The translations under genes and the position numbers were made by a program. The notes below the pieces were generated by a model. The model ran no database searches and was not told the origin of the DNA. It saw only the letters and a list, made by a program, of their open reading frames with translations. A stretch of 62,271 bases of DNA, counting the filler, from Platydemus manokwari (lineage: Eukaryota): NCBI GenBank assembly GCA_037951405.1. It is 6 parts of 6 records of this genome, joined end to end, with 100 filler letters (N's around TTAATTAATTAA, not from the genome) between each part and the next. Parts side by side here need not be neighbours in the genome. Positions count along the whole stretch, not along the records: positions 42,358 to 53,332 come from JBBMOY011005525.1; 5 more parts are not named here. One strand, written 5' to 3'. Position 1 is the stretch's first letter. Each line of letters starts with the position of its first letter. Of this stretch, positions 1,821 to 56,491 are shown one piece after another.

Positions 1821-1824
1821 TTTT

Positions 1825-3400
1825 AGTTTGTTTGTTTTGTCTTTTAATGTGTCATTTGCTATGTAGCTGGTTCTCTGACCTTTGATGTTTTCCTGAAAAT
1901 TAGAATATCTGCCGTAGTCCTATTGAGCTTCTCGCAAATCTGTGGAAGGACTGAAGCGTGTAATGTAGTAGAATATGCTGCATAGTCGAGAATGTGTAGG
2001 ATGACAAATAAGCCGCAGTCCTTTGAGTTTATTTGCTTTGGGAGTTCGGTTATAATGGACTTTTGGAATTATACTGTTTCCTTTACTACCTGCTTATTCT
2101 GTAAGAGATTGTCCAACTGTGTCCACAGAGCTTTTTGTTCACCCTAAACGAAGAGGTTACAGGATCAATCTAATATTATTAGAGAGTATCCTGTCTGTGA
2201 TGTAGAGGTTGAAGTGGCTTCTATTCTACTGAATAAGTCAGATGAAAACTTTTAAAAATGAAAAAGAGTGGTCAAGTGTTTCGAAGTCTTGGTTGATAAT
2301 GGAGTTTGCAGGTTGCGGTTTGATGAAAATGAATTCAGTGGAATTGAAAAATTTTGTAAGGAGATTGAGTTCGATAGCAGAGCTTGATAATCATTTAGAC
2401 TGAAGATCTTCGTTTGTTAAATGAGTGGTGGCAATTGACTGGTTTGGTTTGTATGTTTTCAGTCTTGTGCTGGTCCGATGAAACAGCAGTAACATTGGAC
2501 AGCAAATTCAAGTGGCAAAAAGGCATCGTGGTTTTGTAGGAATTTTTTCGAGACAATTAATGTGTTGGTAAATGGAAAGCGATAGATCTTTGGACATAAG
2601 TTACACTGGGCATTACGATAATCGATTAGAGACATAAATGACGAGGTTGTTGGAGAACCGACATATAATTTCGATACGATTTGGTTGAGAGGAATATGAT
2701 CTGTTTGGATATTGTAGATTAATAGGTTTGGTTGGAGTTCATCGGCAGATTCTTCTTCACTTTACAGAGCATCGGTTGTTTATTTTGTTTTGGGTTGTTT
2801 CTTGGTACATTTTTTTGGGATGGACTTGATCAGATGAAAAGAGGTGATTAAGTGTTCTCGTATATTGCATGCATTCAGGGCACGCACAGAATAGAGCATC
2901 CAGGTAGTTGATGAGAAATGAAAAGTTTCTAATATAAGTCCACTTTTTCTCTTATTGACTGAGTTGCGTAGATCCTCATTATCGGGGTTAGAGTTTAGAA
3001 TTAGAGTTTATTAGATTGATAGCATCTTGGACTGAGTGGTTAGTCTTGAACGAGTTTTGGAATTATAGTTGTTTATTTATCAAATGAGATCGAGATTCTG
3101 GTCGATTTTTGGAACTTGTCTGGTCCTAAAATTGAGATTAAGGTTTTTATAACATCTCAATGACTGACAGGTTGACAGTGTCTTTGTGAAACATTGGAGA
3201 GTCGGCGTGTTATTTGGTATAGTTAACTTTTATAACATACCTTGTAGGTGCAAGGCGATTTATTTCAGTTCTCTTTCTTGTGATCAAGTAGCACCCAGAG
3301 GTTTTTGTGAGGATAGGCATAAGATGGATTTGCGGTCTGCTGGACCGGTTTATTTTGATTAAATATTGCTCTCTTTTACATTTGTTGCTTCCATGAATTT
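1825..3400 (-). mobile_element. Decayed N-terminal part of a NeSL-type non-LTR retrotransposon with Ulp1/C48 cysteine protease and zinc-finger remnants
   Basis: Minus strand reads ELPKQINSKDCGLFVILHILDY (QxNxxDCG catalytic motif, DCG at 2020-2012) and DLQSK*LSSSAI (degenerate WLxDxxI, ~2410-2370). CPEC and CPV* remnants at ~2885 and ~2610. Candidate ATG (MEATN) at ~3394. Confidence 0.7.
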
Positions 3401-4934
3401 CAAGACGGGTTCGTCAGGAGCTCATAAAATCTTGACACAAATAGGACGTAATCTTTAAATTTTCGACCATGAGACTATTTGATTTTGGGGAATGTTACGA
3501 GTGACGAAGTTTGGAATAGATGTGCCAGATTAAGATCAGATTGATTTTCATTATCCAACTAATTGTATTTTTGTAATGAAGATTTTACGAAGATAACAGA
3601 AAAAGTCTAAGAACGAGATCATCATTTAAAAGAAAATAATTGCAGAGGATCAGGGTGTAGAAATTGTACTGATTAGCTAGAAAACCAGTAATGTGATAAA
3701 ATAAGCGTATTAGCTCAGTTTTTTTAATATTATGCATGTGAAGGCCATTGGCGACCACGCTATTCAAATAAATGCAATTACAAGGAATCAACAGAAGAAG
3801 TAACTGCTGATAAGCATGGTATAATAACTCATTCGAAAAAGCAAGCAATGAGTCAAGTAGTTATAAACAACCACATACTATCTGTTTGCTTCAGATAGAG
3901 ATAGAAAAACGTGTTCGATGAAAGAAATAGCCTAGAAACTATACAATAAATGTTGAGGCATACCAGTACCAAAAGAAGAACGCTTGCGTGCAGACAATTG
4001 GTTCTGCAGTAGAGAAAACGGACACCAGAGAAGCTAGTGTCCGTTGAAACACGAATGTTTAATATACGGAGTAGAAAGTCATCACTTCAAATAGTGATAT
4101 TCAGAGCAGAAGGTAGAATTTTATATATTCATGACGAGATCAAGAAGCAATTTTATTCAATCGAAAACTCAGTGACGAGTTAGAAGATCAAAAAAACCAC
4201 AACATCTCTGACGCAAACATTTCTTCGGTGGAGTTGAATAAAAAGATACCAAGAAAACTCGATATGTAATTAAATGAAGGGAGCGGCAGGATGTGTAGTA
4301 TCGTGATGGTCAATGAATCTAAAGTAAAGATGTTGTGATATTTGTGGGCGTCTATGATAGTGAGGATCTAGAGCTATTTGAACAAATGGAAAGCCATAAA
4401 TTACAAAATAGCTTGATTACGTTTATTGTGGTGTTTTCAAGGGTGACAAACGCCCTACGAGGTATGCAGAAGTGATTGCCCAGTGGAGATGAATGAAACT
4501 CAGGGTTGTAATTGCAAAATGAATTTGTCCTGACTTTATCGGAATTTGACATTCGGGATTTAGGTGAAAGAGGTAGCCACAGTCGATTAATCACAATGTA
4601 ACAAAAAATATACTGATGAAGAAATATCGAAACAAGCACTGGAATCGATCAAGACTAGAAACACAGGTAGAATAGGAAGACTCATCATGGAATATGGAAA
4701 AATATTCATTGTTTCGAAATTGTATCTAGGCTGATATACGGAAAAACTCAGCTAGAATATTGTAAGTTGCCAATATTTTATAAAACATGCCCCGAACGCT
4801 AACTGAAAAGACATGACATTTAGTTATATATTTAAATACTATTAGGTAAATAATTAATATAATTTTATATAAAATCAAATTTTACACAAAATTAAATCTT
4901 TTAAAATTTCTTAATTCTATTTAAAATCCTCACA

Positions 4935-6150
4935 AGCATGAAGATTTACTGGAAGCCGTGTTTCGACGAATTCAAAAGTCGGGTTTGAAAGTGAATCCGG
5001 AGAAATGTACGCTTATCAAAGATGAAGTAAGATTTTTAGGCCACACAGTCAGTGCCAAGGGGATACGGACTAATTACGACAAAATCAAACAGATATGATC
5101 ATTTTTAGGCCTGACAAACTATTATTCCAATTCATCAAGAATTATGCTGTAAAAGCCGCTCTAATATGTGCCGACATCCATGGTCAGAATCATGTCAAAC
5201 AATTGTTTCGAAGCTAAAGTTAGCATCCTGTGAAACACCAATTCTGGATTGCCGGAGAGAAAACAGGATATTTGTACTCAATACGAATGCGAGTTTTAGT
5301 GCAATTGGTTTCGTTCTAAGCAAAGTTACCGAGAAAGGATACTGTGTTACCAGGAAGGAACTGCTGTCTATCACAAATATGCCATTTACTTTAGACAATA
5401 CTTATACGAATATTCATCAGAAAGCTCTTGTATTCTTGATCTCGACATGAAAACCGATCTGCCCTAAGTTTCAAACATGGATGGCGGCTCTGTCAGAATA
5501 CGATTTTGATTTAAGATACAGTAAAGGAGAGAATCATACCAACGCAGGTGGATTGTGTAGGATTGACAAGTCTCTATGTTTTCACTACTAGGCGAGACAT
5601 GATGGAGTAAAGACAGAAAAGCTTAAAACCAAATTTTTAGCCCAAATACAAATAAAATGGAAGACAATGCAGAAAATCCAGGAAGCACAGCATAAGGATG
5701 CAGAAATAGTGAAGACATTAAGATTTATAAATGGTGAAATAACTCCAACTAGCATGGAACTCTGAGATAAACATTCACTTTCGAGAATTACAGGTAAGCT
5801 GAAGGTGGTCCATAATATGTGGATGATGGATAAAAAGGAGAGATAATACCAAAAGATTTCGTGTCTCAATTTGTCAGAACAATTCACGAAGAACTCTGTT
5901 ACTCAGGCTTAAAGAAAACCTTCGCATTTTTGGACGGCAGTTTTTATTGGGTCGACATTTTTAACACCATCAAAGAGATACTGAAAGTATGTATTATCTG
6001 TGCAAAGAGAAAGGTTGATCAATCAAGGACTACGGAGTTTCTTCTGTCTCGGTTAGGCTCTGACTTTCAACAGCAAATCATGGTAGATATTGCTCAGGTT
6101 TAGCAAGTGGGTGAGAGTCATTGCTACATCTAAGAAAGACTAAAAGACAA
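4935..6150 (+). mobile_element. Ty3/Gypsy pol remnant (RT end, RNase H, integrase zinc-binding region), internally deleted
   Basis: LEAVFRRIQKSGLKVNPEKC..VRFLGHTVSAKGI; VLNTNASFSAIGFVLS..YCVTRKELL; WMAALSEYDFDLRYSKG..HTNA; IHEELCYSG..FYW..CIICAKRK. Many stops and frameshifts. Confidence 0.85.
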
Positions 6151-7150
6151 TTTTCCAGGTCATCTTAAACTCGTAGATTTATCGGTTTGGAAAACATTCT
6201 ATCTTATAACAGGAAACAATTTCGATGCAAATTTATGAGAGAGACTTGCTTGGGAATCAACCAAGAATTCAGCTCGCCGTAACGGTATCATGTCGAACGG
6301 ATTTATATCTGCAGGTTTTGGTATATTTTCTTGAATATATTTTTTAAAATTATCATCTATAGCTTTATTTATATTTTCCTGTTTGTAATTTTTCTTGATT
6401 TTGAATAACAAGTTTTAAAAATGGTTTTAAAAATTCGGAGATATTATGATTAATTAAAATTCATAAAATTGATATTATTTTTGACTACTTTTTGTTTATT
6501 CGGGTGTCTCTAGTAGAACCTGAAGAAATTGAAAAAAATTTTAGTTCAAAGTATAGTCTCAAAGACTGGTGGTCCCTACTTTTCTTTGAATGCTTTCTCA
6601 TATGTTTAAGTTCACTATTATTTGTTTCATATAATTTATTCAATGTCCTTGGTTTTTTTAAGTACTGCAGTAACAATCTCATGTGGTGACCACGAATTCG
6701 TATGAAGCTTCATAGATTTTTATACATTTGGCTCTTTAAAACTTATTAATTTACTATATTTTCATTGGTTGTGCTTTTATATCTTTTTCATTAATGAAGC
6801 ATCCAAGAAACTTAATTTCTTTTTCTACTTTCTGTATTGTTTATGTTATGATCTCCAAAAACTTTAAAAAATATTTTACACACTCTTCATTTTTGTTGTA
6901 TAACTGCTCTCTGTGCCTATAATTTGGTCTCTTAAAATTTTAACATATTTAAAGTATTTTCTAAAGTCCATTTATTTAACTATTTAAATTAGAAAGTATC
7001 TTGGTGCTTGCCCAATCACTCATTCGCTAAGAATCTAAACTCATCAAGTTTCCGTCCTCTTACCTATATAGTTGCCTAATTTCTTAAGTTCTAACTATCT
7101 TAAAATAAAAAAAATTGAGGACTTTTCAATTGTCTATTTAAGTCTCACAT
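6150..7150 (-). mobile_element. Possible highly decayed LTR-retroelement gag/protease remnant
   Basis: ORF 6199..6411 contains EFLVDSQAS, similar to the retropepsin xLxDSGAS motif. Upstream broken frames are Lys-rich. No other diagnostic motif. Confidence 0.3.
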
Positions 7151-9097
7151 AAATTAGTAACAGTTACTTAAAAACTCTAAGCAAGAAAACTGGTTATGTG
7201 TCAGCAAATATTTGTTATCATTTTATTTAATATTTATATCGATATTGTTGTATAACATTTGATCTAATAATTTTTTTAATTGCTTCTTTGGAGTCAGCAC
7301 AAAATGCATATTAATATTATTTTAACGAGCCAAATCCTTCTGAAGCTAAAACCAAGCAACTCATAATCCAAACATAATCTATGGATAGTAATACATTTTT
7401 ATTGGTTAGTCCTACACCTGCGTTAATTGAGCATTTTTTGGTTTCATTTTAAATCGTCTACGCTCATTTGTGAAATATTTGTGTATGTGATGCATTTAAC
7501 TGAGTTCGAAGAGTTTGCTATATGGTCCTTGTTTGAAGATCAGCTTAATTATTGACTTTTTTTTAACAGTTGTATTGGAAACTATAAAAAACCTCCAACG
7601 TCCTGATTTTATTTGGTGAGAATAATATTGGAAATTGTATATATTGGAATTTCAGTATATGTTGCGTACCCACCTAGCTTCAAAGGACTTTCATGTATTT
7701 CTTCCAAAGGCATTTATTTTGGGATTGTATTCATTTTTCAATTTTCTTTCTAAGATTCTTACAACGAAAATAGTAAAATATATCAAAACCAAAACCAAAG
7801 CAGCCGCTCAAAAATAACTTTCAGCCACGGGGAAATTAAAATGAAATATTAGTTATTAGACTTTTTAAAATTAGTTTCGCAGAAATCACCTAAATAAAAA
7901 TTAGTTATCGGGTGTCACTACATTTCTTCGATAGATCCAATAATTTCGGTATTTGCATCTTCAATAAATTTCATTGAATTAAAAACACCTTTTTAATCAG
8001 GATGGTCACTGATTGAAATCCAACCCATATCTAGTTATTTTTAGAATAGTAGACTGGTAACGTAGACACATAAATTGATTTATCAATATACTGAATTTTA
8101 TCAAAATTTCACATGTTTGTATTTCCATATTCAACACAGCTCAATGCGTCTAAGATCTTTCATTTCCATAATCAAATTTCATATCAAATAAATTTATTAA
8201 GTTAGGAGTTCTGAATGCAGTCTATCTGATGATTACTCTTCAGTTTCTCTTTGTATAATGTCATCTAGACAGTCGTTTGTCCATCTCAAACCATATTTAC
8301 TTTCTTCCCACTTATTGATTGTAGTATTTCAAAGTCAATTTTTTCTGGCAAACGATCGGCGTACTTTTAGTCAATATTTATACACAAATTCCAATGGCTC
8401 TGACATCTTCCAATGTGAAATGCACTAATTTCATTTTTAATGTATTTAACTTATATCATGATCCGTTGCTTTTAATTCTGGTGTTAAGATATTTAAAAGT
8501 GAAACATGATGTTAATAATTGTTTGATGCTCAGAGCTAAATATTTAAATTTCACCTGGAGGTAATGGTCCATCAGAATTCTTTTCTTTAATAGCTTCAGT
8601 AGTTTAGAATTAATTTGTATTAATAACAAAAAATTCTTGTGTTTCCGTATCCTATGACATTTTTTAAGAAATACACAATCCACCTCCTTTGTGTTATTGT
8701 GACTTCGTTCATAATCTATAGGTGCTTTTGTCAGATGATATTTGAGTGTTTCTCATTTCTTAATATCCTTTCGAAGGAATTATTTAAGATGTTTCAAATT
8801 TTCTACCGTTGGTTCATAATGCATAACTGAAGTGTTGAGATTCGATTTTCTTTTTGCTGGATTGTAATCTTCATATGGTTTCTACCTAAACTGCTGTAAT
8901 CTTCTCAAATTTAGCTAGAAGATTCTTATCCCACTTAAAATATTTTTAAATTTAGTTGGGAAACTTGATACTATTTATTATTAAGTAGATTTTCCACTCT
9001 TATTGATTGAATTGTGCCAAAACATTAATTTCAGTGGTGCAAATTCCTTCAAAAGTAATTTATTTTTTTATTTTATGATTTCAGTTTAATTGAATTA

Positions 9098-17229: not shown

Positions 17230-18060
17230 TTGTCGGACTAACGTTAATAGTATTGGTAAATGGTCCTTGAAAATTACCAGTTGCTGCTGAAAACTCTAAT
17301 GGCATCTTAAGTAAACATTATTGTCCATTTTCTGTTGAAAACGTTGTTTTTACTTGGGATTCTTCTATTTAATATTATGGATTGCGCAAGTCAATAGATG
17401 TAAAGTACTTAGAACCGTGGAATATATCTAGCTTTTCATCTACATTTGGCACTGGGAGCACTTGTCTTTCTGTTATCAAATTTAACTGTCTGAAATCAAG
17501 ATATAGTATAATTATTTTTCTTTCTTTCATGTACAAACAAGTGAAGTGTCCCACCACGAGATGCACTTAATTATGACATCATTTTGCTATAGATTCTTAA
17601 TTGTTTCATTTAATGTTTACTTCTATATTTAACGATCGTTTACGCGGCTTTATGTTTTGTTATGCCTTTTCAAGCTAATATAGCATCGTTTCATGATATC
17701 CTCTACATTGATATCGATAGCAACTATTTGGCTCTTCTCATTACAGTCGTGGCACGTTACAACCTTTGGACAATCGAAATTTCTTGAAATATTTGTTGTA
17801 GCATAAACTAGTTTCGAAGTTTTCCTTACTTATTTCCTTTACCTTATGAATTTGCTTCCTTTCTTGTTATCAATCGTGTTCACATTCTTCTGGTCTAGTT
17901 GACCAACTAAAACCAAATTCCTCAGCGTTTTGCTGGTTTTGTTAATATCGAAATATTGATTACAGTTTTTCATAAGTTATTCAATATCTTCCCCTAGCCT
18001 GTATTTGTCCAGCGTTTGTCCGCACTAGTCGATATAGAATTGCATCCAAATGTGTATTCG
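17230..18060 (-). mobile_element. Ty3/Gypsy RT remnant
   Basis: YLDFRQLNLITERQVLPVPNVDEKLDIFHGSKYFTSIDLR...KTTFSTENGQ*..MPLEFSAATGNFQ, matching the Gypsy RT N-terminal motifs. Confidence 0.8.
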
Positions 18061-19060: not shown

Positions 19061-19879
19061 ATGACAGAATATTCCGATTCCACCTACGATGATTATGATT
19101 ATTTGATTAAACTTCTGGCTTTAGGTATGTTTTATCGATTGATTTGATAATATAATTAATCTTATTATAGGTGACAGTTCTGTCGGGAAAACATGTTTAC
19201 TCCAGCGATACATTGACAATGCTTATGCTCATGACTTTGGAAATACCGTTGGAGTAGACTTTAAACAAAAGCGTGTGAATTACAAACCACGAAGTAATAA
19301 TGGGATCGTTGAAAAAGATACCAGGCTCAATTTACAATTATGGGACACAGCAGGCCAGGAGAGGTTTGTGATGATAAAATTTACCAGATAATTGTCTAAT
19401 ATTGATCTATTCGTACCAAGATTCAAAAGTTTAACGGTTTCATTTTTCCGTGATGCAATGGGATTTCTTTTGGTTTTCGATTTAACCGATGAGCAGACAT
19501 TCATCAATTTGCGTGATTGGTTGCGATTATTAAAAATCAACTCCTATTGTGATTCGCCCGATATCGTTTTGGTGGGTAATAAGAAAGATCTGATAGCTCA
19601 ACGAGCAGTGACTTATGATACGGTTAGTAGTTTAGCCAAAGAACTCAAGTAACCATACCATTAACATTTTGGCAAGTTGCATAAATTGTTATTATCAGTG
19701 TGCCATACATTGAAACAAGTGCGGCTAGTGGTGAAAACGTTGAACAGGCCTTTACACTACTTATAGATCTGGTAATGGAACGAATCAATAAAGTTGTCGA
19801 TCAATCATTTTTACCCGTGAAAAAGAAAATCAGACCACCGACAAATGAAACTAATGGAAAACCTAAATGTCGTTGCTGA
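19061..19879 (+). CDS. Rab27: Rab27 small GTPase, 221 aa. Exons 19061-19124, 19171-19363, 19421-19648, 19699-19879; GT-AG introns of 46, 57 and 50 nt
   Basis: Spliced frame reads [87 protein letters not shown] and C-terminal CRC (CXC prenylation). [17 protein letters not shown]..PDIVL and the insert before LQLWD are Rab27 hallmarks. Confidence 0.95.
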
Positions 19880-42357: not shown

Positions 42358-42549
42358 ATACTGCGTTTGATAGCTTATATAAACACCTTTCTAAAAAAGT
42401 ATTACCATACGACATTATATGCAAGCAATACTCCGAGCGACATCTTTTATCAAATCGAAATTTTAAGGTTATACACCCAATAATAATTTATTATTGTCTA
42501 TTTATTATTTGTAATTCGAAAAAGGGATATAGCTGCACAATAACATACA

Positions 42550-42710
42550 GGGATTGACCAATCCCGAGTATACAAAATCAATAAATCCAATAGAAACATG
42601 AGAAATAAAACGTGATACAAAAATTATGCAAAAATCTTGAATATAAGTACAGATCTACCAATTGGACGCCTAATTTTGTGTTTTGCTTTTACATTGATTT
42701 TGATAATTAA
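42550..42710 (+). repeat. Diverged dispersed repeat related to 32215-32420
   Basis: Same collinear blocks as 32215-32420. Confidence 0.5.
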
Positions 42711-43297
42711 AAGCTAAGTTTTTGGTTGTTTTCTATTAAATATGAACTGTTTTTCCAAGGTTAAAAGTTGTTGTATTCGTACTTAATAGTACGTGTTGGT
42801 GAAATACAGGTTGCAACCTTCGATTCTTTTGAACCCCAAAAATTATTTGGTGATTAATGCTGACGTTAGCCTTATTATTCGTCAAATATTTATTCTGGTT
42901 CTCACTAAGTGGTCGTGGATCGGTCAACTACAACTCAGGAGATACAGTGACCTCCTGACATTATATTTCATGAATGTCTCTACATACGGATGGACTGAAA
43001 AAAAATGGATGTAAATTGTTGTATGATATTCAAACATGTAGTTACTGGAACAATTATAGAGTCAAATATTTGGTGAGAATTATTCATCAATAAATAATTT
43101 TATTTCATAATCCAAGAGATAAAAACGAACTTGTCATATCAGTGTCTTTTCCAAGATTCTGTATTTCTTATTTTGTAAACTATTTATCTTTAATCATTGA
43201 AATATCAAATCGTCTATTAAATAGAATTTCAATTTCCTTTGCATTTACTCACATCTTTTTTGTTGGACTATTTTTGTTGAGTTTAGCACTCAACCCA

Positions 43298-43515
43298 ATC
43301 AAATAATCATAGAGAAGTGTTGTGATTAGAATGGGAACTTGGTTTTAAAACTATGTTTTGTCACTATTAGATATCTTTATAAAATGAGATATTAACTGAA
43401 TTATACAAATAAATTAAACATAGCAATTGTATATTAAATTAAGTTATAAAATTATCTCATGCTCGAATATTCATTATAACGAAAGAAGGCCATAGGATCT
43501 TTTTTCTTAAATTAA
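43298..43515 (-). mobile_element. ~550-bp TIR family, partial copy 3
   Basis: TTGGTTTTAAAACTATGTTTTGTCACTATTAG...AAAATTATCTCAT closely matches 59345-59462. Confidence 0.8.
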
Positions 43516-43836
43516 GTCCAGAAATCAATATAAATATATTGTACTTCTGATTCCAATGCAATTCCAAGGCAACATAAACATACTCTGATTCAGATACAAA
43601 ACCACTTCAGTAATAAACCGATCTGATGATCAAAATTCTTGAATTATTAGAATCTCATGAATATTTATGACATGAATAATTATCCTTTGTATGGATATTA
43701 TCTTAATTCTTTTAAATTATAAATCGATAAAAGATATTAATGGGAGGCCACAAATTCTAACTAAATGATTTAAACAACAAATAATAATTAAAGCAATAAT
43801 AGTCATATGATGATATTGATAATAAGAATAGTATTA

Positions 43837-43838
<2 letters not shown>

Positions 43839-43883
<45 letters not shown>
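43839..43883. repeat. (AAT)n microsatellite
   Basis: About 15 perfect units. Confidence 0.95.
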
Positions 43884-43886
<3 letters not shown>

Positions 43887-43954
43887 AAACAAATAATAAT
43901 AACTATTAGAAGTAAGTCGTTTTATACTGAATAATTTATTTAATACAATTGCGA

Positions 43955-44775
43955 TGTTATATACATAATTTTATTGTCGATGATGTAATAACGTCTTGGG
44001 AGATTTCTTGGGTTGTAGCAACTGAGAATTGCGCAATCATTAATCAGCATGCAATCAAACGACATATACACACCATACGTACGACGTTCACTTTTGGAAC
44101 ATTTGAATACATAGAATGTTTATACTTTTACATACTAAAAATAATTATTATGTGAAATTATCTTTTATCAATCAACATTGTAAAATTGTTCGCAAAACAT
44201 TTGGGTTTATATACTTTGATTTTTCTCGATTTTGATTGGTTAAAACTTTTTTACCAATATTTTGATTGGGTAACGAATTATTTTTCGACAGGGATTTTCG
44301 ATTTATTAAATTCGATTTTTATTAGGTGAAGAGTTATTGGGTTTTATATACAGGAATTTATTTCTATTTACAACTTTACGGCCGACCAATTTATTATTTG
44401 CAATTTTATTGTTCACTAGTTTATTTACAATTTTATTACCATATTTTGAATATTTACACGAGTTTTTAATATTTACAATTTTTCCTAGATTATTTCTATT
44501 TACAACAATTGATTTCCTATTTATGCTTTTTGTATTTACAATTTCATTCACTCATACCAGACTTATTTCTAATATATACAATTATACTACTATTATTTTT
44601 ACAATATACACCAATGTTTATATTTAAGCTACTATATACATCCATATTAATTTTGTCTATGTTCAATTTCATGCCCTGTAATTGTCAGGCCTCAATGACC
44701 CATCTATGGTAATCGTTTTTACGCATTTTACTATACACTTTATAACTCAGGATTATTAATACCAAAGTGGTCACA
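43955..44775 (-). mobile_element. Putative 3' LTR of the Gypsy element at 44776-50580
   Basis: On the minus strand it runs TGTG (44775) ... TAACA (43955), with U3-like short repeats (44340-44560), CCAAT boxes (~44268, ~44238), TATATAAA (~44212) and AATAAA (~43975) in the expected order. Boundaries are approximate and no clean PPT is visible. Confidence 0.6.
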
Positions 44776-44789
44776 CTTGTAATTACTAC

Positions 44790-46720
44790 TCCTAGAATTA
44801 TTGTGCCTATTTTTTTTTCCTATATCATTTGATGTTTTCCTAATTAGCATACTGGTCGTGATTTTCTCTTTAACTGTTATCGTTCTTTTTCTTAGTGTTA
44901 CTATAATCGTTTTCAATGTATTTCTTATCAGATTCTTGGGATGTATGATTAATTGTTCCCTATGTATTATTATTTTTCGATTATTCTTCTCGTAATACCA
45001 TATGTTTATTTGAACGTTTTAATCTTCATAAATTTCTTGGGTCAACACCCCCTCAGTTGATTTTATCAGGAATTGTTCTTTATTAACATGCATTCTAACA
45101 TTTATGCAATTTAATTCTTCCCATGTTATCTGTATCTGATTTAGAAATTTCTCTATGAACACTTTCCTTGGCATTTCAGGTGTTTGAATTATCATTGTTT
45201 TCATGTTTTTACCCTTTTTTATCATTGATTGGTAGAACACTCTCATACATTCTGTCATCAGACTTTCTCAAAAGACGCTCTTCTCTAACATTCATTTCAT
45301 TCAATAATTGCGCAACAAACTGTTCTTTATCGTTACTATCAATTAATGTTATCTGACCGTATCTTGAGTATGCCTTTATCTTTTCTTTTCTGAAATCCTC
45401 ATAAGAGAACATCATCATTGGGCTTTCACATGAATGAATATTGGGTAATACTAATAAGGCAGACATCATTGTTGCTATTCTAGGTAAGCGTCTCAATCTT
45501 ATTTCTGGTGGCTCAACTCTTTCTTTTTTAGCATACATTATTATAACTGCTATTATTATTACCGTAACCATAATGGTGAAACTTATTATACATGCTATTC
45601 TTAAATTTTTAATGTCCTTTTCGGTTCCCCTTATAACTTCAGTTAACATTATTCTTTCTTTAATCAGGTTACTTCTCCATTTTTGCTGTTCAATTTTCAT
45701 TTTATGTTTTAATTGATCTATTTTCCCCTTAACTATCTTTTCCCATTCTTCTCTCTTGATTTTATCTCTTATACTTCACATCCTCTGTTGATATTCTTTT
45801 ATCTTTTCCCATTCTCTATTTCTTACCGCTTTTTGTTCATTAATTACCCCATTATTCACCCAATCTGGTATGTTAATCATGAATTTATCCTCCTTAATTG
45901 CACATAACTTAAGATCTTTCTTACAATTACATTTAGAATCCAATGCATTCCATTGAAACTGCTTTGTTGATATTTTATGCAACCCCACTTTGGAAAGTAT
46001 TAAAGCTTGTTCTAACTCATCATTGCTCAGTGTTATCTTTACTTCCTTATCTATTGTTATTTTAATTGATGTTCCCATTAATGGTTGTAAATGATATCTT
46101 ATTTTCTTACAGTATGGTTCCCATGAAATTCCTATCCTTTCTTTTTCCTTTGGAACTTTAAATTTCCATTCATTTATAACCGGTTTTTTTCATTCATCAT
46201 TAATTGTAACCGTCCTATCGCTGATATTGTCATCTTTACCTTTCTTGGGCTCATGAATTCTATCATGACTACGAAATTTATTCTCCATTTTAGTTCTAAC
46301 TTTTCTTCCCACTTTCCTATTATTGTTATTTATCTTAATTTCTCTTTTTTACATATTTCTCCTAATCATTGATGACACTTTATAACTACATCTACCATTT
46401 TCCCCTTTTCATTAACTTATATTTCTTCAATTGTCCTTAATTTTCTTCAATTGCATTTATTTTGACATTCTATTCTTGCACGGTAGAATGAACTTTTTGA
46501 GTTCTAATTTATCAATTTTACAAACGGGTTCCATATCCTTATTTCTTATAAATGATAGTGTAGTTATAACATTTTCCACTTCATTCTCTTTCGTTTTGTT
46601 AAATTCCTTTATCGTCATGTTTTGTGGATTTATCGGGCTTATCATGGAACAAATTATCAAACAGATTATCACTAATTGACTTATCCTATTAATTGATATT
46701 ATTTCACATTCTTTCTCAAT
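44790..46720 (-). pseudogene. Env-position ORF of the Gypsy element (signal peptide, ectodomain, TM, second hydrophobic segment); frameshifted, family unrecognised
   Basis: LVIICLIICSMISPINPQ (signal-like, ~46675-46620); ORF pieces 46457..46672, 45776..46078, 45209..45700 and 45019..45258; TM IACIISFTIMVTVIIIAVIIMYA (45598-45530); IATMMSALLVLPNIHSC (45478-45428). Confidence 0.6.
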
Positions 46721-49700
46721 TTACTTTATGATGTTTATATTTAGGATATATTTCTGGGTTTGTTCTGGTTTCTTTCTTAAAGTATCTTTCCTATTTGCTA
46801 CTATTTGTGGTTCATATTCCGCTTTCTTAAACCTATTTACATGAACTACAGATGGGTCTTCATTTTTCTTCTTTTTAATAAACAGATTGGTATTAGTTAC
46901 TTCTACAACCTCATACGGTTCTTTATATGGTCTTTGTAATTTGGGTGAAATTCCTTTCTTAACCTCTGGGGCATAGATCCTAACCTTATCTCCTATTTTA
47001 AATCCATGACTGCATGCTTTTCTATCATGGTAATCCTTATATTGTTCTTGTTTGAATTTTAAATTCAACTTAGCATGTTGATACGTTTCTCCCAATCTTT
47101 CTTTCATTACAATTACGTATTCTTTTTCGTTTATTAATTGAGATGTCTTTGGCAGAAATTCAAGGTCTATTGGCAAATACGCATCCCTCAGGTGCATGAG
47201 GTAAAACGGTGAATAATTAGTTGCTTCGTTAATAGCTGTATTATATGCAAACCCCAATCAGTTGGCTTTTTATTTATGAAATTCGATAACGTATTTTGCA
47301 ACGTTTGATTGTAACAATCAAATAAACCATCTGCTTGTGGTCTATATGGAGATGTATTGATTTTCTTTATTTTAAAAGTCTCCGTTACTTCTCTAACGAT
47401 GTTACTTAAGAAGTCTTTCTCTCTATCAATCAATAATTTGCTGGGTGCTCCATATTGAAAAATTTTTTTTCTACTAGTAACTTGACTAAGGTCTCACTTT
47501 TATGATTTTTTACTGAGTATGCGAGTGACATTTGGGTGAAATAGTCACAGAATACTATTATGTATTTATTTCCTTTTTCAGTTATTGGTAACGGACCCAT
47601 TACGTCCATTGCACACATTTCCATTGATCTTCCTTCTGGTGGTAAAGGTTTTAACGGTATTTTTCTTATTCTACCGGTATTTTATCGTGTGATTGCACCA
47701 TTTCTCTATATCCTTTTTCATATTATCACATTAATATTTTGCTTTTAACTTTCCATGTGTTTTTCGTTTTGATAGATGACCTCCCAATGCTCCATCATGA
47801 TAGGATAACAACAAAAGGTTCCGTTAATCTTTTAGGTACCACTATTAAATTTTCGTCTCCATATGTTAGAATGTTTCCTTTATTTAACTTATATAATTTA
47901 ATTTTTTCACTATCTTCTCCTTTTTCTATGAACTATCTTATTTTTCCTTATTTTACTATCCTCTTTTAGCTCGTTTACAATCTCTTGCATGTCTATTTTG
48001 GTGTTAACAGTTTGTATAAGGAAATTTACAACATTTATTCCTAATGTCTTATTTTCTGATTTTTCAGGAATTCGGGACATCGGGTCCGCATTACCATTTG
48101 ACTTTCCAGTTCTATATATAATTTTAATGTTATGGTCTTGTAATTTTAACGCCCATTTAATTAATCGACTGCTGGTATCCCTGTGTTTCATTAGACTTTC
48201 TAATGGATTATTGTCGGTATTTAGTATTATTTCGCTTTCATAGATGTACTGACGAAATTCTTTTAATGCAAAAACTATTGCCAAACATTCTTTTTCTATT
48301 CCTTTTCAGATTCTTTTAACGATCTGCTTGCTCAAGCTATTACATGATCAGGTTGTCCTTCTTTCTGTTGTCCTAATACTGCTCCTAATGCCTCATTACT
48401 TGCGTCTGTCATGACTATGAATGGTTTTGTCATATCTGGGTATCTTAACACCGGTGCATGTGTTAGGTTATATTTTAGATTTTCAAACGCTTTGTTTATC
48501 TCCCCATCCTAATTTCATATTAATTTCTCCTTTACTTCTTTTTCCTCTACCTATTGTCTTGTCTATTTTTTTCTGTTGACCATGTTTTCTTTTATATTCT
48601 GCCGATGCCTTTTCATAGCATTATATATTGGCAAAGCTGTTTGTGCATATTTTTTCTTGAAACCTCCTATAATAGCCTGCCATTCTTAAGAATGTCTCAG
48701 CTTCATTCATTGTTGTCGACGCTGGAAATTTTTCAACTTTTTCTATTTTAGCGGGATCGGGTGCTATTTCTTTTGATGATATTATATGTCCTACGAATGT
48801 TACTTTAGGTTTAGCCAATCGACATTTTGTGGGTTTAATTTTTAATCCTGCTTTTTTTAACCGGAAAATCACTCTTCCTATGTCGATTAAATGTTCCTCG
48901 AATGTAAACTAATATATCGTTAATGTAGACCATTGGTAAATCGGTTAAAACGGTATTCATTAACCTTTAAAATGTTGCGGGAGCTCCATTTAAACCAAAA
49001 TACATTTTTACAAACTCATATAATCCTTCTCCTAGACAGAATGCTGTTTTTTCTATATCATCCTCTTTCATTTTAACTTGATTGATTCCCTTATTCAAAT
49101 TCAATTTGGTGTAAAACTTGGCTCCGTTTAACTTATCAAATATTTCCCTTATGTTAGGTAATGGAAATACATCCTGTTTTGTATTTTTATTTAATTTCCT
49201 ATAGTCTGCACAGAGTGTTATTTCTCCATATTTTTTCTTCACTGGGACCATATAGGTTTTAAATGGCGATTTACTTTTTCTTACAAGTCCAAATTCTTCC
49301 ACATCCCTAACTTGTTTTTCAGCTTCTTCTAACAACTTATACGGCATTCTCCGTGATGGTAATTTTATGGGTGTGTTGTCAGTCATTACTATTTCATGTT
49401 CTATTACTGCTGTTGATCCTACATCATATTCATGTTTTGCCATTAGGTCCTTATATTGGTCTATTACTTCTTGTAATTGCTCATTTTGTTCTAATGTCAA
49501 ATTTTCCTCTTGTATTTTTACTTCAGAATATTTTTTAATCCTATCAGGTGTATTAGCATCTACCATTGCTTCTCCTTGATGTATTATTTTATCCTCTGTA
49601 TCACAATTTATTATGTATACTGGAAAACATCCGTCTTTAACTTGTGCAAAGGTATTGATCATTTTAACATTTTCTTTAATCATTTTAGATTCTAACATGA

Positions 49701-50580
49701 ATGTCTTATCCTTATATTCCTCATTTATGAGTATGTGATATATCCCTTTACTCCATTTTGGGATTATCATGTTTTCGCATATTCTTATGATTTTATTCGG
49801 CTTTTCGATTTTATCATTACTTCTATTGGGCATATTTAAGTTCTTGTAATTTCTTAATTTTTCTATTTAATCGCTTGATTTTATTCGTAATGTACGCAAG
49901 TCCAAATACCATCCTTTAAGCCTTCCTAACAAATCCATTCCTATCAACACTGCAAATAATGCTTTTTCTATGACTTTAATCATGTGATCTCTTTTTATGT
50001 TTCCCATTATCAGACTCAAGACTACTTTCCCTACTGTTCTTATAGGTGCTCCTGTTGCTCCTGTTAATGTATCTGTGTCTACTTCTATTTTTTCCATTTC
50101 CTCCGTGTCTAATATTTTAGTGCTCACCAGTGATACATCAGCTCATGTGTCTATCAATGCTTTTACAAATCTTCCTTTTATTTGTACTATTATAATTGGT
50201 CTTGTACCCTTTTTAGGCGTTATTTGCACCATTCTTATTTTGTATAAATGGGGTTGTATTTGCGGATATAATGGTATGTTTTGCTATTTTTCACTTAATG
50301 CCTTAGTACTATCTATTATTTCTTCTATTTGCATTCTAGCCTGTCGATCTTCTAGTGCGAACATGGGTTTAATTCCTTCTACTGTTGGTGGTCGTTGGTA
50401 ATATTCTTGTGGATACTTATGACTTTTTACTTTTATAGGGTTATACATTGACTGTGGTTGTACTAATTGTAGTGGAAGTCTAGGGTTATTTTCTCCTGCT
50501 TTTAACAATTCTATATCTTTTTGATGTTTTACCTATGTTAGATGTTTTGCTATTTGTGGCCAGATGAAACACAAGCCTTG
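46721..50580 (-). mobile_element. Decayed Ty3/Gypsy LTR retrotransposon: gag C-terminus, protease, RT, RNase H, integrase
   Basis: Degenerate knuckle GLCFI..GH..AKH (~50575-50540); KALIDT*ADVSLV (protease, ~50165-50125); LCADYRKLNKNTKQDVFPLPNI, KTAF, YINDIL (RT); TDAS, EKECLAIVFALKEFRQY, RLIKWALKLQ, NADPMSR (RNase H); HDGALGGH, MDVMGP, SPYRPQADG, AYNT..YSPF, KLQRPYKEPY..VHVNRFK (integrase with GPY/F-like module). PR-RT-RH-IN order. Confidence 0.95.
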
Positions 50581-50583
50581 CTA

Positions 50584-52349
50584 AGAACACTTAAATACAT
50601 CCTTCAAGGTTTTTGCCGAAATGATCGATGAGAAAATCGCCTTTATCAATGCTATGATGTAGTATATTCCCAAGGAAAATGAAAATATTTCCCCAATTTC
50701 CTGAAAACCTCCGTAAAGACTATAGAACATTCCCTTAAAATGGTCTGCTGATAGCAACGCCTCATAATTGAGTGATCCGTCAATACTTCCTTGTAACACC
50801 TTATGCACCATATTCATTATGACTTTCTCTATTTGTATCGGAAACAACATATGCTTTCTAGCTTTTTCTATATCCTCAGCTGCGTATATTCCATTTTTAT
50901 CCATATTAGTGAATGGTTTAAAAGCTAAATTTCCTGTTGGTCCATTTGCTTTCAAGGTCTTAACATCACTACGCGGTTTTTTATCATCAGTTCCTATCCA
51001 TCTCCAATAATCAAATCGAAATACAGGATCCATTACATTTAAACAAGCGTCTATTGGAGGTGCCTTATAATTATGTCCTAAGATTATCCTAGTGACCGGT
51101 TGTAAGAACGTTTTTGGTTATTATATATTATTGGCATTTCGTTGGTACAATGCTCATGCTTCCTTATAACAAGATTGATTACTTTTTTGCACTTAAAGGT
51201 ATAAATTAATACTTTCCCTACTACTCGAGCAAATGTTCCTCTCTCCTCAAATATTATAGGTGCTACTAATTCCGGATTCGTTATTGCTAACGCTAACTTA
51301 GTTTTCAAGACTTCTCAACTTAACTTACAATCATTCAATATCAGTTCCATATAGACTTTCTCCATTAAATAGTCCAACTTATTGTTAAAGTATTGTGCTA
51401 GCTTCACATCCAACTTATTGACTTCTCTTTTGGCGTCTTTTATTTCATTCTCACTCAGGTATATTCCTTTATAGTTTGTTACTATAACCATTTGAGCACA
51501 TTTTCTATCTCGACCCTTATGTATAAACCTAGTTGCACTTTTTCCTTCTTCACTCATGTATACCGTTGGTGTTTCTTTCATTCTTATTTCAGATGTTTGC
51601 CTATTACTATTGGGTATATAACTTTCCGCAAACTTTGTCTCTTTAAATATTTTTCCATTTACTGCGTGCAACTTTCCTTTTTAATAACGTTAATAAACAT
51701 TGGTATGGATAAGCCTTATACATTATTAATGATGTTCCTGTGTCACATATTTCCTTCTCGTATTCACAATGTATCCATGCTGTCATTTTTTTAGTCTGAT
51801 CACTAAATGTAGCTTGGAATTCTCTTAATTCTATGATGTAATGTCTTAATGCTACTACATTTTCTAATGTCTTATTCCACACTTGATATTATGAACCCTT
51901 ACAGTAACCTTCTGTTCTTCTCCATCCTGCAGGTCCTATTGTTTGTCTTGTTATGCCTTTCCTTAATGTCATTGCATATCCTTGCGATGTGTAATATGTT
52001 CTTTTCTCAAATGATTGTTTACATTTTTCCTATGTTGGTATTTCTGGCATTGGTGCCCATGCAGGTTCTAATACTGTTGTATATGCTTCTGATGCCTATG
52101 ATCAGTGAAATATTAACTTCTCTGACTTTTTCAAACAGAAATTCGGACTCTTGAATACAGGTACATTTCCTTAGCTATTGATTTTGTTAAATGTACAGGG
52201 TATGATTCCGGACATTTATCAATGTCTAGCAATGAATATTTTTGTCCCCATCGTGGTTTTCCACAATCATATTCATCAATTCCTGTTTCAACACCTCCTA
52301 TTAATCCTACCAGATACATTGTAAGCAACGTTTGAACTATGGTGGTAAA
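50584..52349 (-). pseudogene. Chuvirus-like (Jingchuvirales-type) envelope glycoprotein, frameshifted and C-terminally truncated
   Basis: Collinear motifs across 5-6 broken frames: signal TTIVQTLLTMYLVGLIGGVETG; YDCG..YSLLDIDKCP; QESEF; PAG..EGYCKG..ENVVA; CEYEKEICDTG; KCAQ..TNY; YFNNKLDY..NDCKL; LALA..PE..GTFARVVG..FKC..CTNEMPI; GIY..DIEKARKHMLFP; FQEIG..LGIYYIIALIKAIFSSII (TM). Recognised from recalled family motifs, not from a database search. Confidence 0.8.
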
Positions 52350-53332
52350 CTTAGATTTTTGCTTAAGCTGTTTTTCTGATAATTTTATTTCATTTTGCAT
52401 TATGAGTTTTTCGTTCTCAATCATTTTTTCTAATATTGACTGTATTAATTTAAACCATCCTTGATTTTGATTAATTTCATTCTCATATTCATTTGATATT
52501 AATTCCGCTCCTTCCTCTTTGTCAATTATTTTATTATTCATTAAATTCATCGTCGTTTGCAGGGTTGTTATCATTCTTCCTGGTGTTTTCTCCTCATTTA
52601 AAATATTAATTACTTCCTTAGCTGTTTCCTTATCCGATATTTTGTTGCTTATTTGGTTTATGTCTTCTCTGTATTTACTCGTACAATGCTCTAATGCCTT
52701 TATTTGCAATCTTTCATTTTTATCTAAAGCGCTGGCTTCGCCACTAAGTGCTTGTAAATATTGTTTAATTTTTTCCTTTGCTTCTTCTCTTTGATTAAAT
52801 TCTTTAATTGCCTGTGCATGTGACTGTTTTTTCTCTAAATCGCGGATTTCGTCACTAAGTGCTTGTGTTTGATATTTGATTCTCCATTTAACTTTTTCTT
52901 CTATGTCAGAATCTTTAGGTGGTATGTCTCGTTCGCTTGATTTTAAAGGGTTGTCGCAATTTATGATTTTATTTTCGTCGAATGTTATGGGATCATCGTT
53001 GTTTATGATTTTATTTTTAATTTTATTCTTAACTCCTGGTGGTCTTCCTCTAGTTTTTCTCATTGTTGTTTCTTGATCTCTCATTTCCTTATTATCTTTT
53101 ATTTCTTCTTCTGTTTCAGTTCCTTTCTCTATCCTATCTTCTTCTCTTTTCCTTAACTCTTTTTCTTCATTCCATTTCCCTAACCTATTTTCTTCTATAT
53201 TTTTTCCTTGAACTTCTTATTCTATCATTTCTCCATTGTTACCATAGTTATATGCGACTAATTGATTTATTGGCTCATTTATAGCTTGAAATGTTCTTGA
53301 TGTTGATGGTATACATTCTTCTCTTATCATGT
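52350..53332 (-). pseudogene. Charged/coiled-coil segment with AT-hook, in frame with the glycoprotein signal peptide (probable polyprotein linker or integrase tail)
   Basis: ORF 52131..53084 runs RKTRGRPPG -> E/K-rich helices -> signal peptide -> YDCG without a stop. The same frame extends to the gap at 53333 with one TAA. Confidence 0.6.
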
Positions 53333-53432
53333 NNNNNNNNNNNNNNNNNNNNNNNNNNNNNNNNNNNNNNNNNNNNTTAATTAATTAANNNNNNNNNNNN
53401 NNNNNNNNNNNNNNNNNNNNNNNNNNNNNNNN
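53333..53432. other. Assembly spacer N44-TTAATTAATTAA-N44
   Basis: Same 100-bp linker; true gap size unknown. Confidence 0.95.
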
Positions 53433-54960
53433 AACCATTTCAGAGCTACATGATCAGTTCTCACAATAAATTTCTTACCATATAAGTAGTGCTTAAATTT
53501 TTTAACAAAAACATAGATGGCTAGCAACTCTTTTCTTGTTATACAATATTTACGCTGCACTTTTGTCAATACTTTTGATGCATACGCTATCACTCGTTCT
53601 TCACCGTTTTGTATTTGAGAAAGCAAGACTCATATGGCACCGAAAGATGCATCAGTTTCCAAAACATTTCCCTTCTTTGCATGGTAAACTTAGAATTGGT
53701 GGTGAAATTAATGATGTTCTAATTTGTGAATAGATGCAGTTGCTAAATTATTCCACTCAAATTTGCTTTCTTTCTTCAGTTATTGGTATAGTGGTTGGGT
53801 AATACCAGTAAAATCTATCATAAGCCGCCTAAAATAGCCACATAATCCCAGAAATACCTGTAATTCCTTGACACATTGAGGTTGTAACCATTTTTTTTTA
53901 TTACAACAAGCTTGTCTTCATATGTTCGTATGCCGTTTTGGTCAATCACATGTCCTAAATACTTAATTTGTTTTCTGAAGAAAAAACATTTCTTTGGAGC
54001 CATTTTCAACCCAGCTTCATCAATTCGATTTAAGACTCCTTCCAACATTTCATTGTGCTCATTGACTATTCTTCCAAATATCAGAATATCATCTAGACAG
54101 ACTTCGCAGTTTGTCCAATCTTCAGTCTTCAATACGACATTCATTAGTTTCTGAAAAGTAGCAGCTACTGAACATAATTCAAAAGGCATTCGATTAAACT
54201 GAAACTGTCCGTATCTAGTTCTGAATGCTGTTTTTTCTTTTGTTTCTTCCTCCAATTCTACTTGATGATATCCGTTCGCCAAATCTATTGTTGAAAAATA
54301 TTCTTATACAGCATCGAATATTTCTTCAGAGTTTGGTATAGGCAAAATTGGTCTGAACGTAGCTGCATTTAGCTTCCCATAATCTACGCACATTCTACTC
54401 GTTCCATCCTTTTCCTAACTAGCACTATTGGGAAATTCTACCCTGAATTACTTGGACTAATAACGTTTGATTCCAACATTCCATCTATTAGATGTTTAAC
54501 CTCTTCTAAACCCAATTCTACGAAGTTTGACAGCTATTGATTGATCAATGTTTGTTTTGATACTAAGTCCTCTGTATTTCGATAGAATTCTCATAAGATT
54601 ATTCTTATCCTCAGGATTCAGTTTATCATCTAAGTTCTGATCAACGTGTTTTAATATTTCATCTAATCGATTTTCTCTCTTTCCGGAACATAAATTATAC
54701 AACTCAACTGAATTCCAAATGCTGCTCTGGTTTATTTCATATACTCTTCTATCCAACCTAAATACATTCCAGTCTAAATTTTGTTGGTGCCATTCTCAAT
54801 TTGCTTCAAGCTTACTGAAACATATCCGTTATTTACTTTAATCAATGAATTGGCTATTATCAAATCCTTGCTACAAACACATACTCCAAAAACCTATCCA
54901 CTTTTCTGCTATATACGTCAACAACTATAGCTTTTACAAAGTAATCACCATCTTCCAACA
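53433..54960 (-). mobile_element. Ty3/Gypsy pol remnant (RT and RNase H) reading toward the gap
   Basis: MCVDYGKLN..PIP; DLANGYHQV..KTAFRTRYGQFQFNRMPF..ATFQ; CLDDILIF; KYLGHVI; ETDASFGAI; ERVIAYAS..YCITRKELLAI..FKHYLYG..RTDHVALKW. Confidence 0.92.
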
Positions 54961-55192
54961 GCACATACTTAAAGACTAATCGGACTATTATGAATCACTT
55001 ATTGGACTACATTACGAACGTGTAAAAAAATATTAATAATCGATTTACTTTTTACAGTCGAAAAAAATCCAAAGAAAATTAAAGTCGCTTTTATTAAAGT
55101 GCTTTTGGATTATAATTATAGTTGTATACACATATTATATAAATTCATTTGTTATCTACATAAATCAATACATATTATCAATTATAATAACA

Positions 55193-56491
55193 ATGAAAAT
55201 CATCAATATTTTGTCTATGCTTTGGAAATATTTTAATGAAATAATATTAAGTCAATGCGACGTGAAAAATAATTATCCAATATGTGAGCCTTGTAAGCAG
55301 AAAGTGTCGAAAAGATTCTTGACAAATAATTCTTCAACTCCTCCAATTAAAATTCGAAAATTAAATACCGTTGAAATCACAAATTCCTCAATGAATAACA
55401 ATGAATTAAAGACATTTATTTCATCAATTATCAAATATTTTAAATGTTCCAAATGTAAACTTTACGGAAAATCTTTTAAACAATGTTATATGGGTCACAT
55501 ATTTTGTCTTAATTGTATCAACGATCAAGGAGTTTACTGTGCGGACTGTAATGTTTTAGTGAAAACAAGTGATTTATCTCTTTGTATAATCCCTACCAAT
55601 GTTCAATCATGGATGAAATCCGATTGCCCTCTATGTCACAAAGAATATTTCCAAAATTATCTGGAGATACATCAAAACACAAACTGTCCAAATCGAAAAA
55701 CGATTTGCGATTTTTCCATTTTTGGCTGCACATGGTCAGGAACAGCAAATGAACAGACTCATCACAAAGACGAATGCCAATTTAAAAATCTCGAAGTGAA
55801 AAATGGTTTCGAAAATTATCAAAAGCATCTAGCTAATTTAAAAATATTGTATTCACCAGAGAATTATTTGCTAAGAGATTTAATCTTGAAAATCACCCTC
55901 CAAGAAAATGGATTGCGTGTAATCGTTAAAGAAACCTTGTTAACTAAAACCGAGATTTCTTATCTGACAAACTCAATTCAAGTAATTAAACACCAGAGCC
56001 CCATGATTGAATTACCTTTCAGTTGCTGCGAAGCTCACGGATTTTATTTAGAATTTATAATTGTTAACGACACCATTAAAAAAACACTAAAATTTCGTTA
56101 CACCTTAAAATCCGAAAGTACAACCAATGTAAATTTAAATTTTTGTTTATTAAATTTCAAATCTGATCTAATGGAAGAAGAATTAATATTCACAGACAAA
56201 TTTCATGGGCACCATTTTCAACAAGGTAACGAAGAATCGATTGCTTATGACATCAAAATATGTCACAATGATTATGTACCTGTAACTAATCATATCGTTG
56301 ATGCTAAACAAATCAGTTTTACTTTATGCACGCTGGCTAGATTTTTAAATAGATCTGTGACTAATCACGATGATTCGCATTCAACAGACATTGATAATTT
56401 TTATTCTTTATTAATCTTTTATTATTACTGTTTCACCAATCCAATATTAAGATTATTATTATCAATTTTTGGAATCAACGTGCATTTTTAA
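55193..56491 (+). CDS. RING (SINA-type) and TRAF-type zinc-finger protein, CYHR1/ZFTRAF1-like, 432-aa single ORF
   Basis: CSKC..QCYMGHIFCLNC..CADC (RING); CPLC..HQNTNCPNRKTICDFSIFGCTWSG..HKDEC (TRAF-type zinc finger); C-terminal KKTLKFRYTLKS..NFCLL..HF..NEE..DAKQISFTL resembles the CYHR1 C-terminal domain. Exact start and end are uncertain. Confidence 0.8.
   Translation: MKIINILSMLWKYFNEIILSQCDVKNNYPICEPCKQKVSKRFLTNNSSTPPIKIRKLNTVEITNSSMNNNELKTFISSIIKYFKCSKCKLYGKSFKQCYMGHIFCLNCINDQGVYCADCNVLVKTSDLSLCIIPTNVQSWMKSDCPLCHKEYFQNYLEIHQNTNCPNRKTICDFSIFGCTWSGTANEQTHHKDECQFKNLEVKNGFENYQKHLANLKILYSPENYLLRDLILKITLQENGLRVIVKETLLTKTEISYLTNSIQVIKHQSPMIELPFSCCEAHGFYLEFIIVNDTIKKTLKFRYTLKSESTTNVNLNFCLLNFKSDLMEEELIFTDKFHGHHFQQGNEESIAYDIKICHNDYVPVTNHIVDAKQISFTLCTLARFLNRSVTNHDDSHSTDIDNFYSLLIFYYYCFTNPILRLLLSIFGINVHF

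Follow-up and report, generated by a model that had tools for sequence, protein, structure and literature searches.

A Gypsy element of the flatworm Platydemus manokwari with a gB-type envelope upstream of pol and a tandem pair of predicted type-I membrane proteins behind the integrase

The window analyzed here is a stretch of 62,271 nucleotides from Platydemus manokwari (assembly GCA_037951405.1), composed of six parts joined by 100-letter fillers, in which positions 42,358 to 53,332 come from record JBBMOY011005525.1. This part carries a decayed Ty3/gypsy element on the minus strand, in which a region encoding predicted membrane proteins (hereafter the membrane region) follows the integrase. 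The features of the element are listed below.

52330-53216, minus strand: K/E-rich leader with an AT-hook-like RGRP motif (ORF 52131-53216, in frame with the gB signal)
50580-52346, minus strand: gB-type (Monjiviricetes/chuvirus-like) envelope glycoprotein, broken in this copy (PF24664)
52346-52290 and 50688-50632, minus strand: gB signal and gB transmembrane segment (TM), by hydropathy
46724-50250, minus strand: Ty3/gypsy pol with protease, RT, RNase H and integrase, broken (Pfam)
46721-46723, minus strand: stop codon between the integrase and the membrane region, private to this copy (contig comparison)
46634-46684, minus strand: predicted signal-peptide-like stretch 1, in frame with the integrase (KD11 3.33)
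45860-46630, minus strand: ectodomain 1, distal part, ~255 codons with three frame changes and few Cys
45600-45860, minus strand: long helical stalk of ~85 residues, running into TM1 (AlphaFold helices, Trp spacing)
45530-45598, minus strand: TM1, 23 aa (KD19 3.02)
45529-45479, minus strand: basic cytoplasmic linker between TM1 and signal 2, the 17-residue tail 1
45431-45478, minus strand: predicted signal-peptide-like stretch 2, ending NIHS/C (KD11 2.36)
44820-45430, minus strand: ectodomain 2, ~200 codons with two frame changes and 2 Cys
44742-44810, minus strand: TM2 (KD19 2.66)
44540-44741, minus strand: cytoplasmic tail of protein 2, whose end is uncertain (a stop follows 44688)
44150-44540, minus strand: 3' untranslated or LTR-like region (candidate LTR) with six TGTAAATA repeats, CCAAT and TATA-like boxes

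The pol domains recognized by Pfam occur in the order RVP, RVT_1, RT_RNaseH, rve and Integrase_p58_C (PR-RT-RH-IN). Immediately upstream of pol sits the gB-type env, which shares the PR/RT frame: a single frame is common to the gB C-terminus, the protease and the RT, with 6 stops in 739 codons, such private stops being abundant in this copy. PF24664 matches the gB region twice (Pfam; E 8e-21 and 9e-4), over 51680-50584. No useful Pfam match to gag was obtained in the leader, and the N run at 53333-53432 cuts the 5' part of the element. The chuvirus-like G that the preliminary description had noted next to the membrane region is the element's own gB-type envelope, placed as in published GAG-ENV-POL elements of flatworms, and the term 'env', if taken to mean a fusogen, does not suit the membrane region, as the element already has this envelope upstream of pol. 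The linker leading from the gB TM to the protease (50580-50250, minus strand) is rich in Pro, Gln and Tyr and holds the motifs YNPI and LYPQI, which we take, as a motif class, to resemble viral late (budding) domains.

Elements with env ahead of pol have been described from flatworms, nematodes and bryozoans (PMC13524379). The Platyhelminthes GAG-ENV-POL errantiviruses of the HSV/gB type described there (Smed_errantivirus_1-6, entries of 14.5-18 kb; Chary and Hayashi, eLife, PMC13524379) likewise carry a gB-type env upstream of Ty3/gypsy pol and occur in many copies, and short motifs of the window gB resemble, by eye, the Smed_errantivirus ENV rows in supplement file 2 of that paper. In its main text, compared by text alone, just chromodomains are mentioned behind the integrase, and fibronectin, attachment and accessory proteins are not (PMC13524379). 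The single gB-PR-RT frame also parallels the in-frame env of Burro/GYPSM1, giant gypsy-like planarian elements in which a Mononegavirus-like env lies in frame between gag and pol, within a very long polyprotein with extra domains (PMC6431247). The window element is far shorter than Burro over the part seen, and the Burro extras listed there (MATH/TRAF, BIR, BCL2, ankyrin) are cytoplasmic, with no post-integrase membrane protein among them (PMC6431247). Our literature search found no description of membrane proteins behind the integrase in such elements, an earlier mention being possible; the element type is already known, and the tandem pair of post-integrase membrane proteins is a new form of it.

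The integrase ends in NINIIK and is followed by a single TAA (46723-46721), after which the same minus-strand frame continues with IEKECE...MISP, just as first described. Over 46720-45212 this integrase-continuing frame contains 7 stops in 503 codons, as compared with 48.8 +/- 6.7 expected (2000 shuffles, none as low), and the region is therefore coding sequence in decay. The best frame along it was picked with a codon-usage model, for which 1537 codons from known genes of the element served as training set; on the resulting frame map 7 stops occur in 637 codons as compared with 61 expected, a figure that is partly circular owing to this choice of frames. The model predicts five frame changes in all (near 46490, 46445, 46220, 45230 and 44870), with the integrase frame preferred from 46720 to ~46490 and again from ~46220 to 45230, whereas different frames are favored in the interval and past 45230. 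Codon usage fits the element's genes in 6/6 of the on-map segments, and both strand composition and codon usage of the membrane region continue those of pol. Contigs representing other copies (see below) become unlike at 46474-46482, where the map places a break, and show no difference at the stop at 46459, at a depth of ~1000, which fits the map because the integrase frame is non-coding there. The post-integrase region is genuine coding sequence. The preliminary description of broken coding sequence thus held as to coding, with the amendment that the reading takes five frame changes and extends past 44790, into a second ectodomain, a second TM and a tail that reaches ~44690 or beyond.

Other copies of the element were seen as contigs of one public run, possibly from the window's own sample, aligned to the window. 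At the codon 46723-46721, four of the four other contigs differ within the codon and have no stop (depth 64.2 of 77.6, the remaining depth being a contig identical to the window); just these four reach the junction at 80% likeness, as compared with a depth in the thousands over pol, and most family members go unseen there. The TAA, whose conservation had been proposed as a check, is private to this copy. Since the four other contigs have no stop, read-through is not needed and in-frame fusion applies instead, so that one of the two routes originally offered was retained and the other dropped.

The contigs cover the entire membrane region, at a summed depth of 190-1170 as compared with 230-7600 over gB and pol (most bins >1200), depth not being equivalent to copy number, and family depth runs on to ~44154. 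Diverged contigs (~80-88% alike) overlap one another from the integrase through signal 2 (46589-47251, 46517-46716, 46050-46543, 45509-46176 and 45407-45913). The layout up to signal 2 is therefore characteristic of the family rather than the result of an insertion in this copy, which goes against the unrelated insertion that had been named as a possible refutation. No long contig bridges signal 2 to TM2 among the contigs listed. Copies vary more in the membrane region than in pol, as seen from the lower depth at 80% likeness and from loose ends. A further contig, at a depth of 97, skips 44303-44973 (671 bases), which takes away the last part of ectodomain 2, the whole of TM2 and some of the 3' region; a subfamily with this deletion exists.

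Examining the differences between copies at 46511-46719 (22 differences listed at a share of at least 40%, with the stop-codon site and three integrase sites omitted) revealed 7, 5 and 10 at codon positions 1, 2 and 3, respectively. Eight are synonymous and none creates a stop, as compared with 1 and 3 new stops when the same differences are read in the other two frames. A selection test on these differences gave p values that ranged from 0.04 to 0.10 with the mutation model assumed; purifying selection, another of the checks proposed at the outset, thus shows a weak sign on the 5' part of the membrane region.

Along the frame map, four hydrophobic stretches (46684-46634, 45598-45530, 45478-45431 and 44810-44742) set the order signal, ectodomain 1, TM, basic linker, signal, ectodomain 2, TM and tail, over ~670 codons, with the signals judged by hydropathy alone. 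This signal-TM-signal-TM architecture very probably gives two predicted type-I membrane proteins, with ectodomains of ~340 aa (protein 1) and ~200 aa (protein 2). By KD11, signal 2 (2.36) lies below signal 1 (3.33) and above the element's own gB signal (2.09). The landmarks of the preliminary description were all located, namely CNCKKDLKLC (45931-45902, minus strand), the 23-aa TM, the basic tail and the second signal ending NIHS/C, and its idea of a membrane polyprotein behind the integrase is supported. The order that it gave, signal-ectodomain-TM-signal, was found as well and continues into ectodomain 2 and a TM2 (44810-44742) that it had missed.

AlphaFold was run on 46189-45212 from a single sequence (pLDDT 50) and left the distal part of ectodomain 1 unfolded, with ectodomain 2 helical at pLDDT <50. 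The helices H109-136 and H140-222 (pLDDT 65-84) place a helix of ~85 residues ahead of TM1. Along this stalk a Trp recurs every 22 residues (304, 326 and 348 of P0001), with two R-x-EWEKI repeats; periods of 3.75 and 5.5 residues reached p ~0.01 among the 11 periods tried and are not relied on. Strand patterns recalling FN3 occur in both ectodomains, by eye only (ERIGISWEP, GTSIKITID and PRKVFIEK...QIQITWEE), and beta periodicity reached a z of 2.2 in one of six ectodomain pieces of the window. Tail 2 would hold a YxxL motif at 44636, provided that the frame continued past the stop after 44688. Behind it, within 44540-44372 (minus strand), six copies of TGTAAATA, which is presumably a forkhead-type site, lie ahead of the CCAAT and TATA-like boxes, and no second copy of this LTR-like 3' region was found within the window.

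Searching with the integrase C-terminus yielded a sole relative among 150 candidates, the ENA protein P0003 (50% identical over 122 aa), in which the integrase passes without a stop into a signal, after which come an fn3-like domain, another beta-rich domain, a Thr-rich stalk, a TM and finally a tail. The fn3 match (Pfam E 0.0017) falls short of the curated cut-off. A single-sequence model of P0003 was poor (pLDDT 42), its top Foldseek rows including FN3-containing chains at E 0.03-0.06, and the VIA match to this model is confined to its C-terminal helix. The tail ends in T-E-V, which we take to be a PDZ-type C-terminus as a motif class. Residues 185-365 of P0003 appear to form two successive beta-rich domains, of which Pfam labels the first alone as fn3.

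In both P0003 and the window element, a signal and a type-I TM protein follow the integrase in the same frame. P0003 has one such membrane protein, of ~350 aa, whereas the window element has two in tandem (~670 codons), and the stalk is Thr-rich and mucin-type in P0003 but helical and Trp-periodic in window protein 1 (Thr content of 11.8% in P0003 vs 3.4% in P0001). No significant sequence likeness was found between the window and P0003 ectodomains: in 28 pairwise comparisons of window and P0003 pieces none reached p<0.05 (best p 0.056). The linker and signal 2 of the window element resemble, by eye, the linker and signal of P0003, and ectodomain 2 matches the P0003 ectodomain in size and position. 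With an integrase-signal-ectodomain-TM architecture that P0003 shares, the region is likely one version of a cassette that recurs in flatworms; the single cassette of relatives likely corresponds to protein 2, protein 1 having been added. Hence the new cargo family suggested at first keeps its novelty in sequence, in that no sequence relative was found, and loses it in architecture. The P0003 contig is 1978 bases long, too short to reveal any gB gene. An RT-based search for polyproteins of 1540-4900 aa gave one match, P0004, an ordinary gag-pol without env.

Searches on the membrane region itself gave little. No relative of the integrase-frame reading was found among 7994 candidates, viral contigs searched with the ORF from TM1 to ectodomain 2 and metagenome contigs searched with the integrase alignment and with P0003 gave no match, and an Atlas search with the two open frames gave no usable match. 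Pfam matched no fn3 in the membrane region of this decayed copy and no F or gB profile (PF24664 included), and tblastn detected no likeness to the window's own gB, in agreement with the initial remark that the region does not resemble the chuvirus-like G. In viral Foldseek the AlphaFold model, itself poor, had no match at E<=0.001. Several candidates were rejected: P0002, the one match among 1.84 billion proteins (73-aa tandem repeat, 41-aa chance match); a row at E 1.6, dismissed as chance, apart from which phmmer on the PDB gave no match; and Pfam rows at E 0.001-1 (Vma12, DUF2207_C, TubC_N and mSLOG), dismissed as composition matches.

Two known envelope types invite comparison. Phlebovirus-like Gn/Gc precursors of the nematode Atlas/Cer BEL elements are laid out as signal-ectodomain-TM-signal-ectodomain-TM, and the window proteins share this layout. 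Gn/Gc, which are class II fusion proteins rich in Cys, have roughly double the size of the window proteins, whereas the window ectodomains have few Cys (2 in the ~200 aa of ectodomain 2) and no Pfam match. As compared with the gB type, with its Cys-bridged ectodomain of ~600 aa, the window ectodomains measure ~340 and 200 aa and have no PF24664.

We assign a probability of roughly one half to the reading that proteins 1 and 2 are accessory surface proteins, likely for attachment or adhesion, beside the gB-type fusion protein, the function being a prediction. This reading is suggested because they are stalked type-I proteins, because their relative P0003 resembles an adhesion molecule, and because herpesvirus gB requires separate partner proteins for receptor binding and triggering. 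The Gypsy reading frame, whose 3' end is broken here, would pass from the integrase into the two predicted membrane proteins, and the resulting single polyprotein (leader, gB, PR, RT, RH, IN, protein 1, protein 2) would be threaded across the ER membrane several times. Signal peptidase, cutting behind each signal, would free gB, protein 1 and protein 2, with the enzymes remaining on the cytoplasmic side; coming from one polyprotein, the three would be produced in equal amounts. The ectodomains, likely degenerate FN3-type domains kept off the membrane by the stalk, may then bind the target cell, as P0003 and the analogy to herpesvirus gB suggest. If so, swappable membrane proteins behind the integrase, single in relatives and double here, are candidates for the means by which the gB of these widespread elements finds its target cell, and the contrast between single and double cassettes can be tested comparatively in tractable animals. 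A bolder version, which we consider distinctly unlikely, is a herpesvirus-like entry machine of flatworm gB-type retroelements, in which one polyprotein gives the gB fusogen and, in this lineage, two separate receptor-binding or gB-triggering proteins of a new family. To our knowledge envelope-bearing retrotransposons have been described with one envelope gene, and this would be the first with three envelope proteins.

Proteins 1 and 2 could instead be captured receptor-like cargo that manipulates the host cell, as decoy receptors or through signaling or trafficking via their tails, and has no role in entry. We regard this as possible, if somewhat unlikely: the Burro polyprotein carries host-modulating domains (BIR, BCL2-like, MATH/TRAF; PMC6431247), the region varies more than pol among copies, P0003 ends in T-E-V and tail 2 would hold a YxxL, but tail 1 has a mere 17 residues, the 85-residue stalk suits display at a distance, and co-translation with gB fits a role in the particle or at contact sites. 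Decoys of this kind would be receptor-like cargo co-translated with replication enzymes. There is little chance, in our estimate, that protein 1 serves as another fusogen or assists fusion, as a class I protein of new or degenerate type whose heptad region would be the pre-TM helix. The long helix lies immediately ahead of TM1, and a place behind pol is the usual env position. However, neither a furin site nor a hydrophobic fusion peptide was found in the lumenal parts of the frame map, in keeping with the initial remark on missing F-type env motifs; RxxR motifs occur outside the coding frame, within the cytoplasmic linker, or inside ectodomain 2 with no hydrophobic stretch behind them, and no hydrophobic stretch occurs between signal 1 and TM1. 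A periodicity of 3.5 residues was not clear in the stalk (p 0.43), the F and gB profiles and the viral fold search (on the poor model) gave no match, and the element already has gB.

Accessory surface proteins made by in-frame fusion also have to be set against two readings that concern the origin of the region. SIRE1, a plant copia element, expresses its env-like ORF by stop codon suppression (PMC2829016), and here too a single stop parts pol from an env-like ORF in this copy; here, by contrast, the stop is peculiar to a single dead copy. This codon is not a stop in four of four other contigs, and the window copy has many further private stops in gB-RT, which leaves expression by read-through hardly credible. 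We know of no report of TAA-ATT-GAG as a leaky stop context, which also counts against it. It would likewise surprise us if the region were an unrelated insertion or a neutrally drifting captured gene fragment: the missing homologues, the weak selection statistics and the deletion of parts in some copies would fit such an origin, but diverged copies bridge the integrase to signal 2, the region carries on from pol in strand composition and codon usage, and P0003 has the same architecture.

The window holds several other coding remnants. A different Gypsy RT-RNase H (53380-54480, minus strand), 38% identical to the element's RT and situated across the N run, probably belongs to another element. 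RING/zf-TRAF-like genes are expanded in planarians, and an intronless RING/zf-TRAF-like ORF of 483 codons lies at 55040-56491 (plus strand; weak Pfam matches to zf-TRAF and TRAF3_RING). An intronless Rab-type GTPase sequence at 19143-19649 (plus strand; Pfam Ras, E 4e-19 and 7e-17), which a stop or a change of frame interrupts, is possibly a processed pseudogene, Rab27-like by eye. The broken ORFs at 82-1610 (plus strand) look like those of a non-LTR retroelement that encodes a restriction-like endonuclease, with no Pfam match at E 0.01 in the three pieces scanned. Further Gypsy remnants include an integrase H2C2 segment at 5834-6100 (plus strand; E 1e-9) and an RT piece at 17270-17512 (minus strand).
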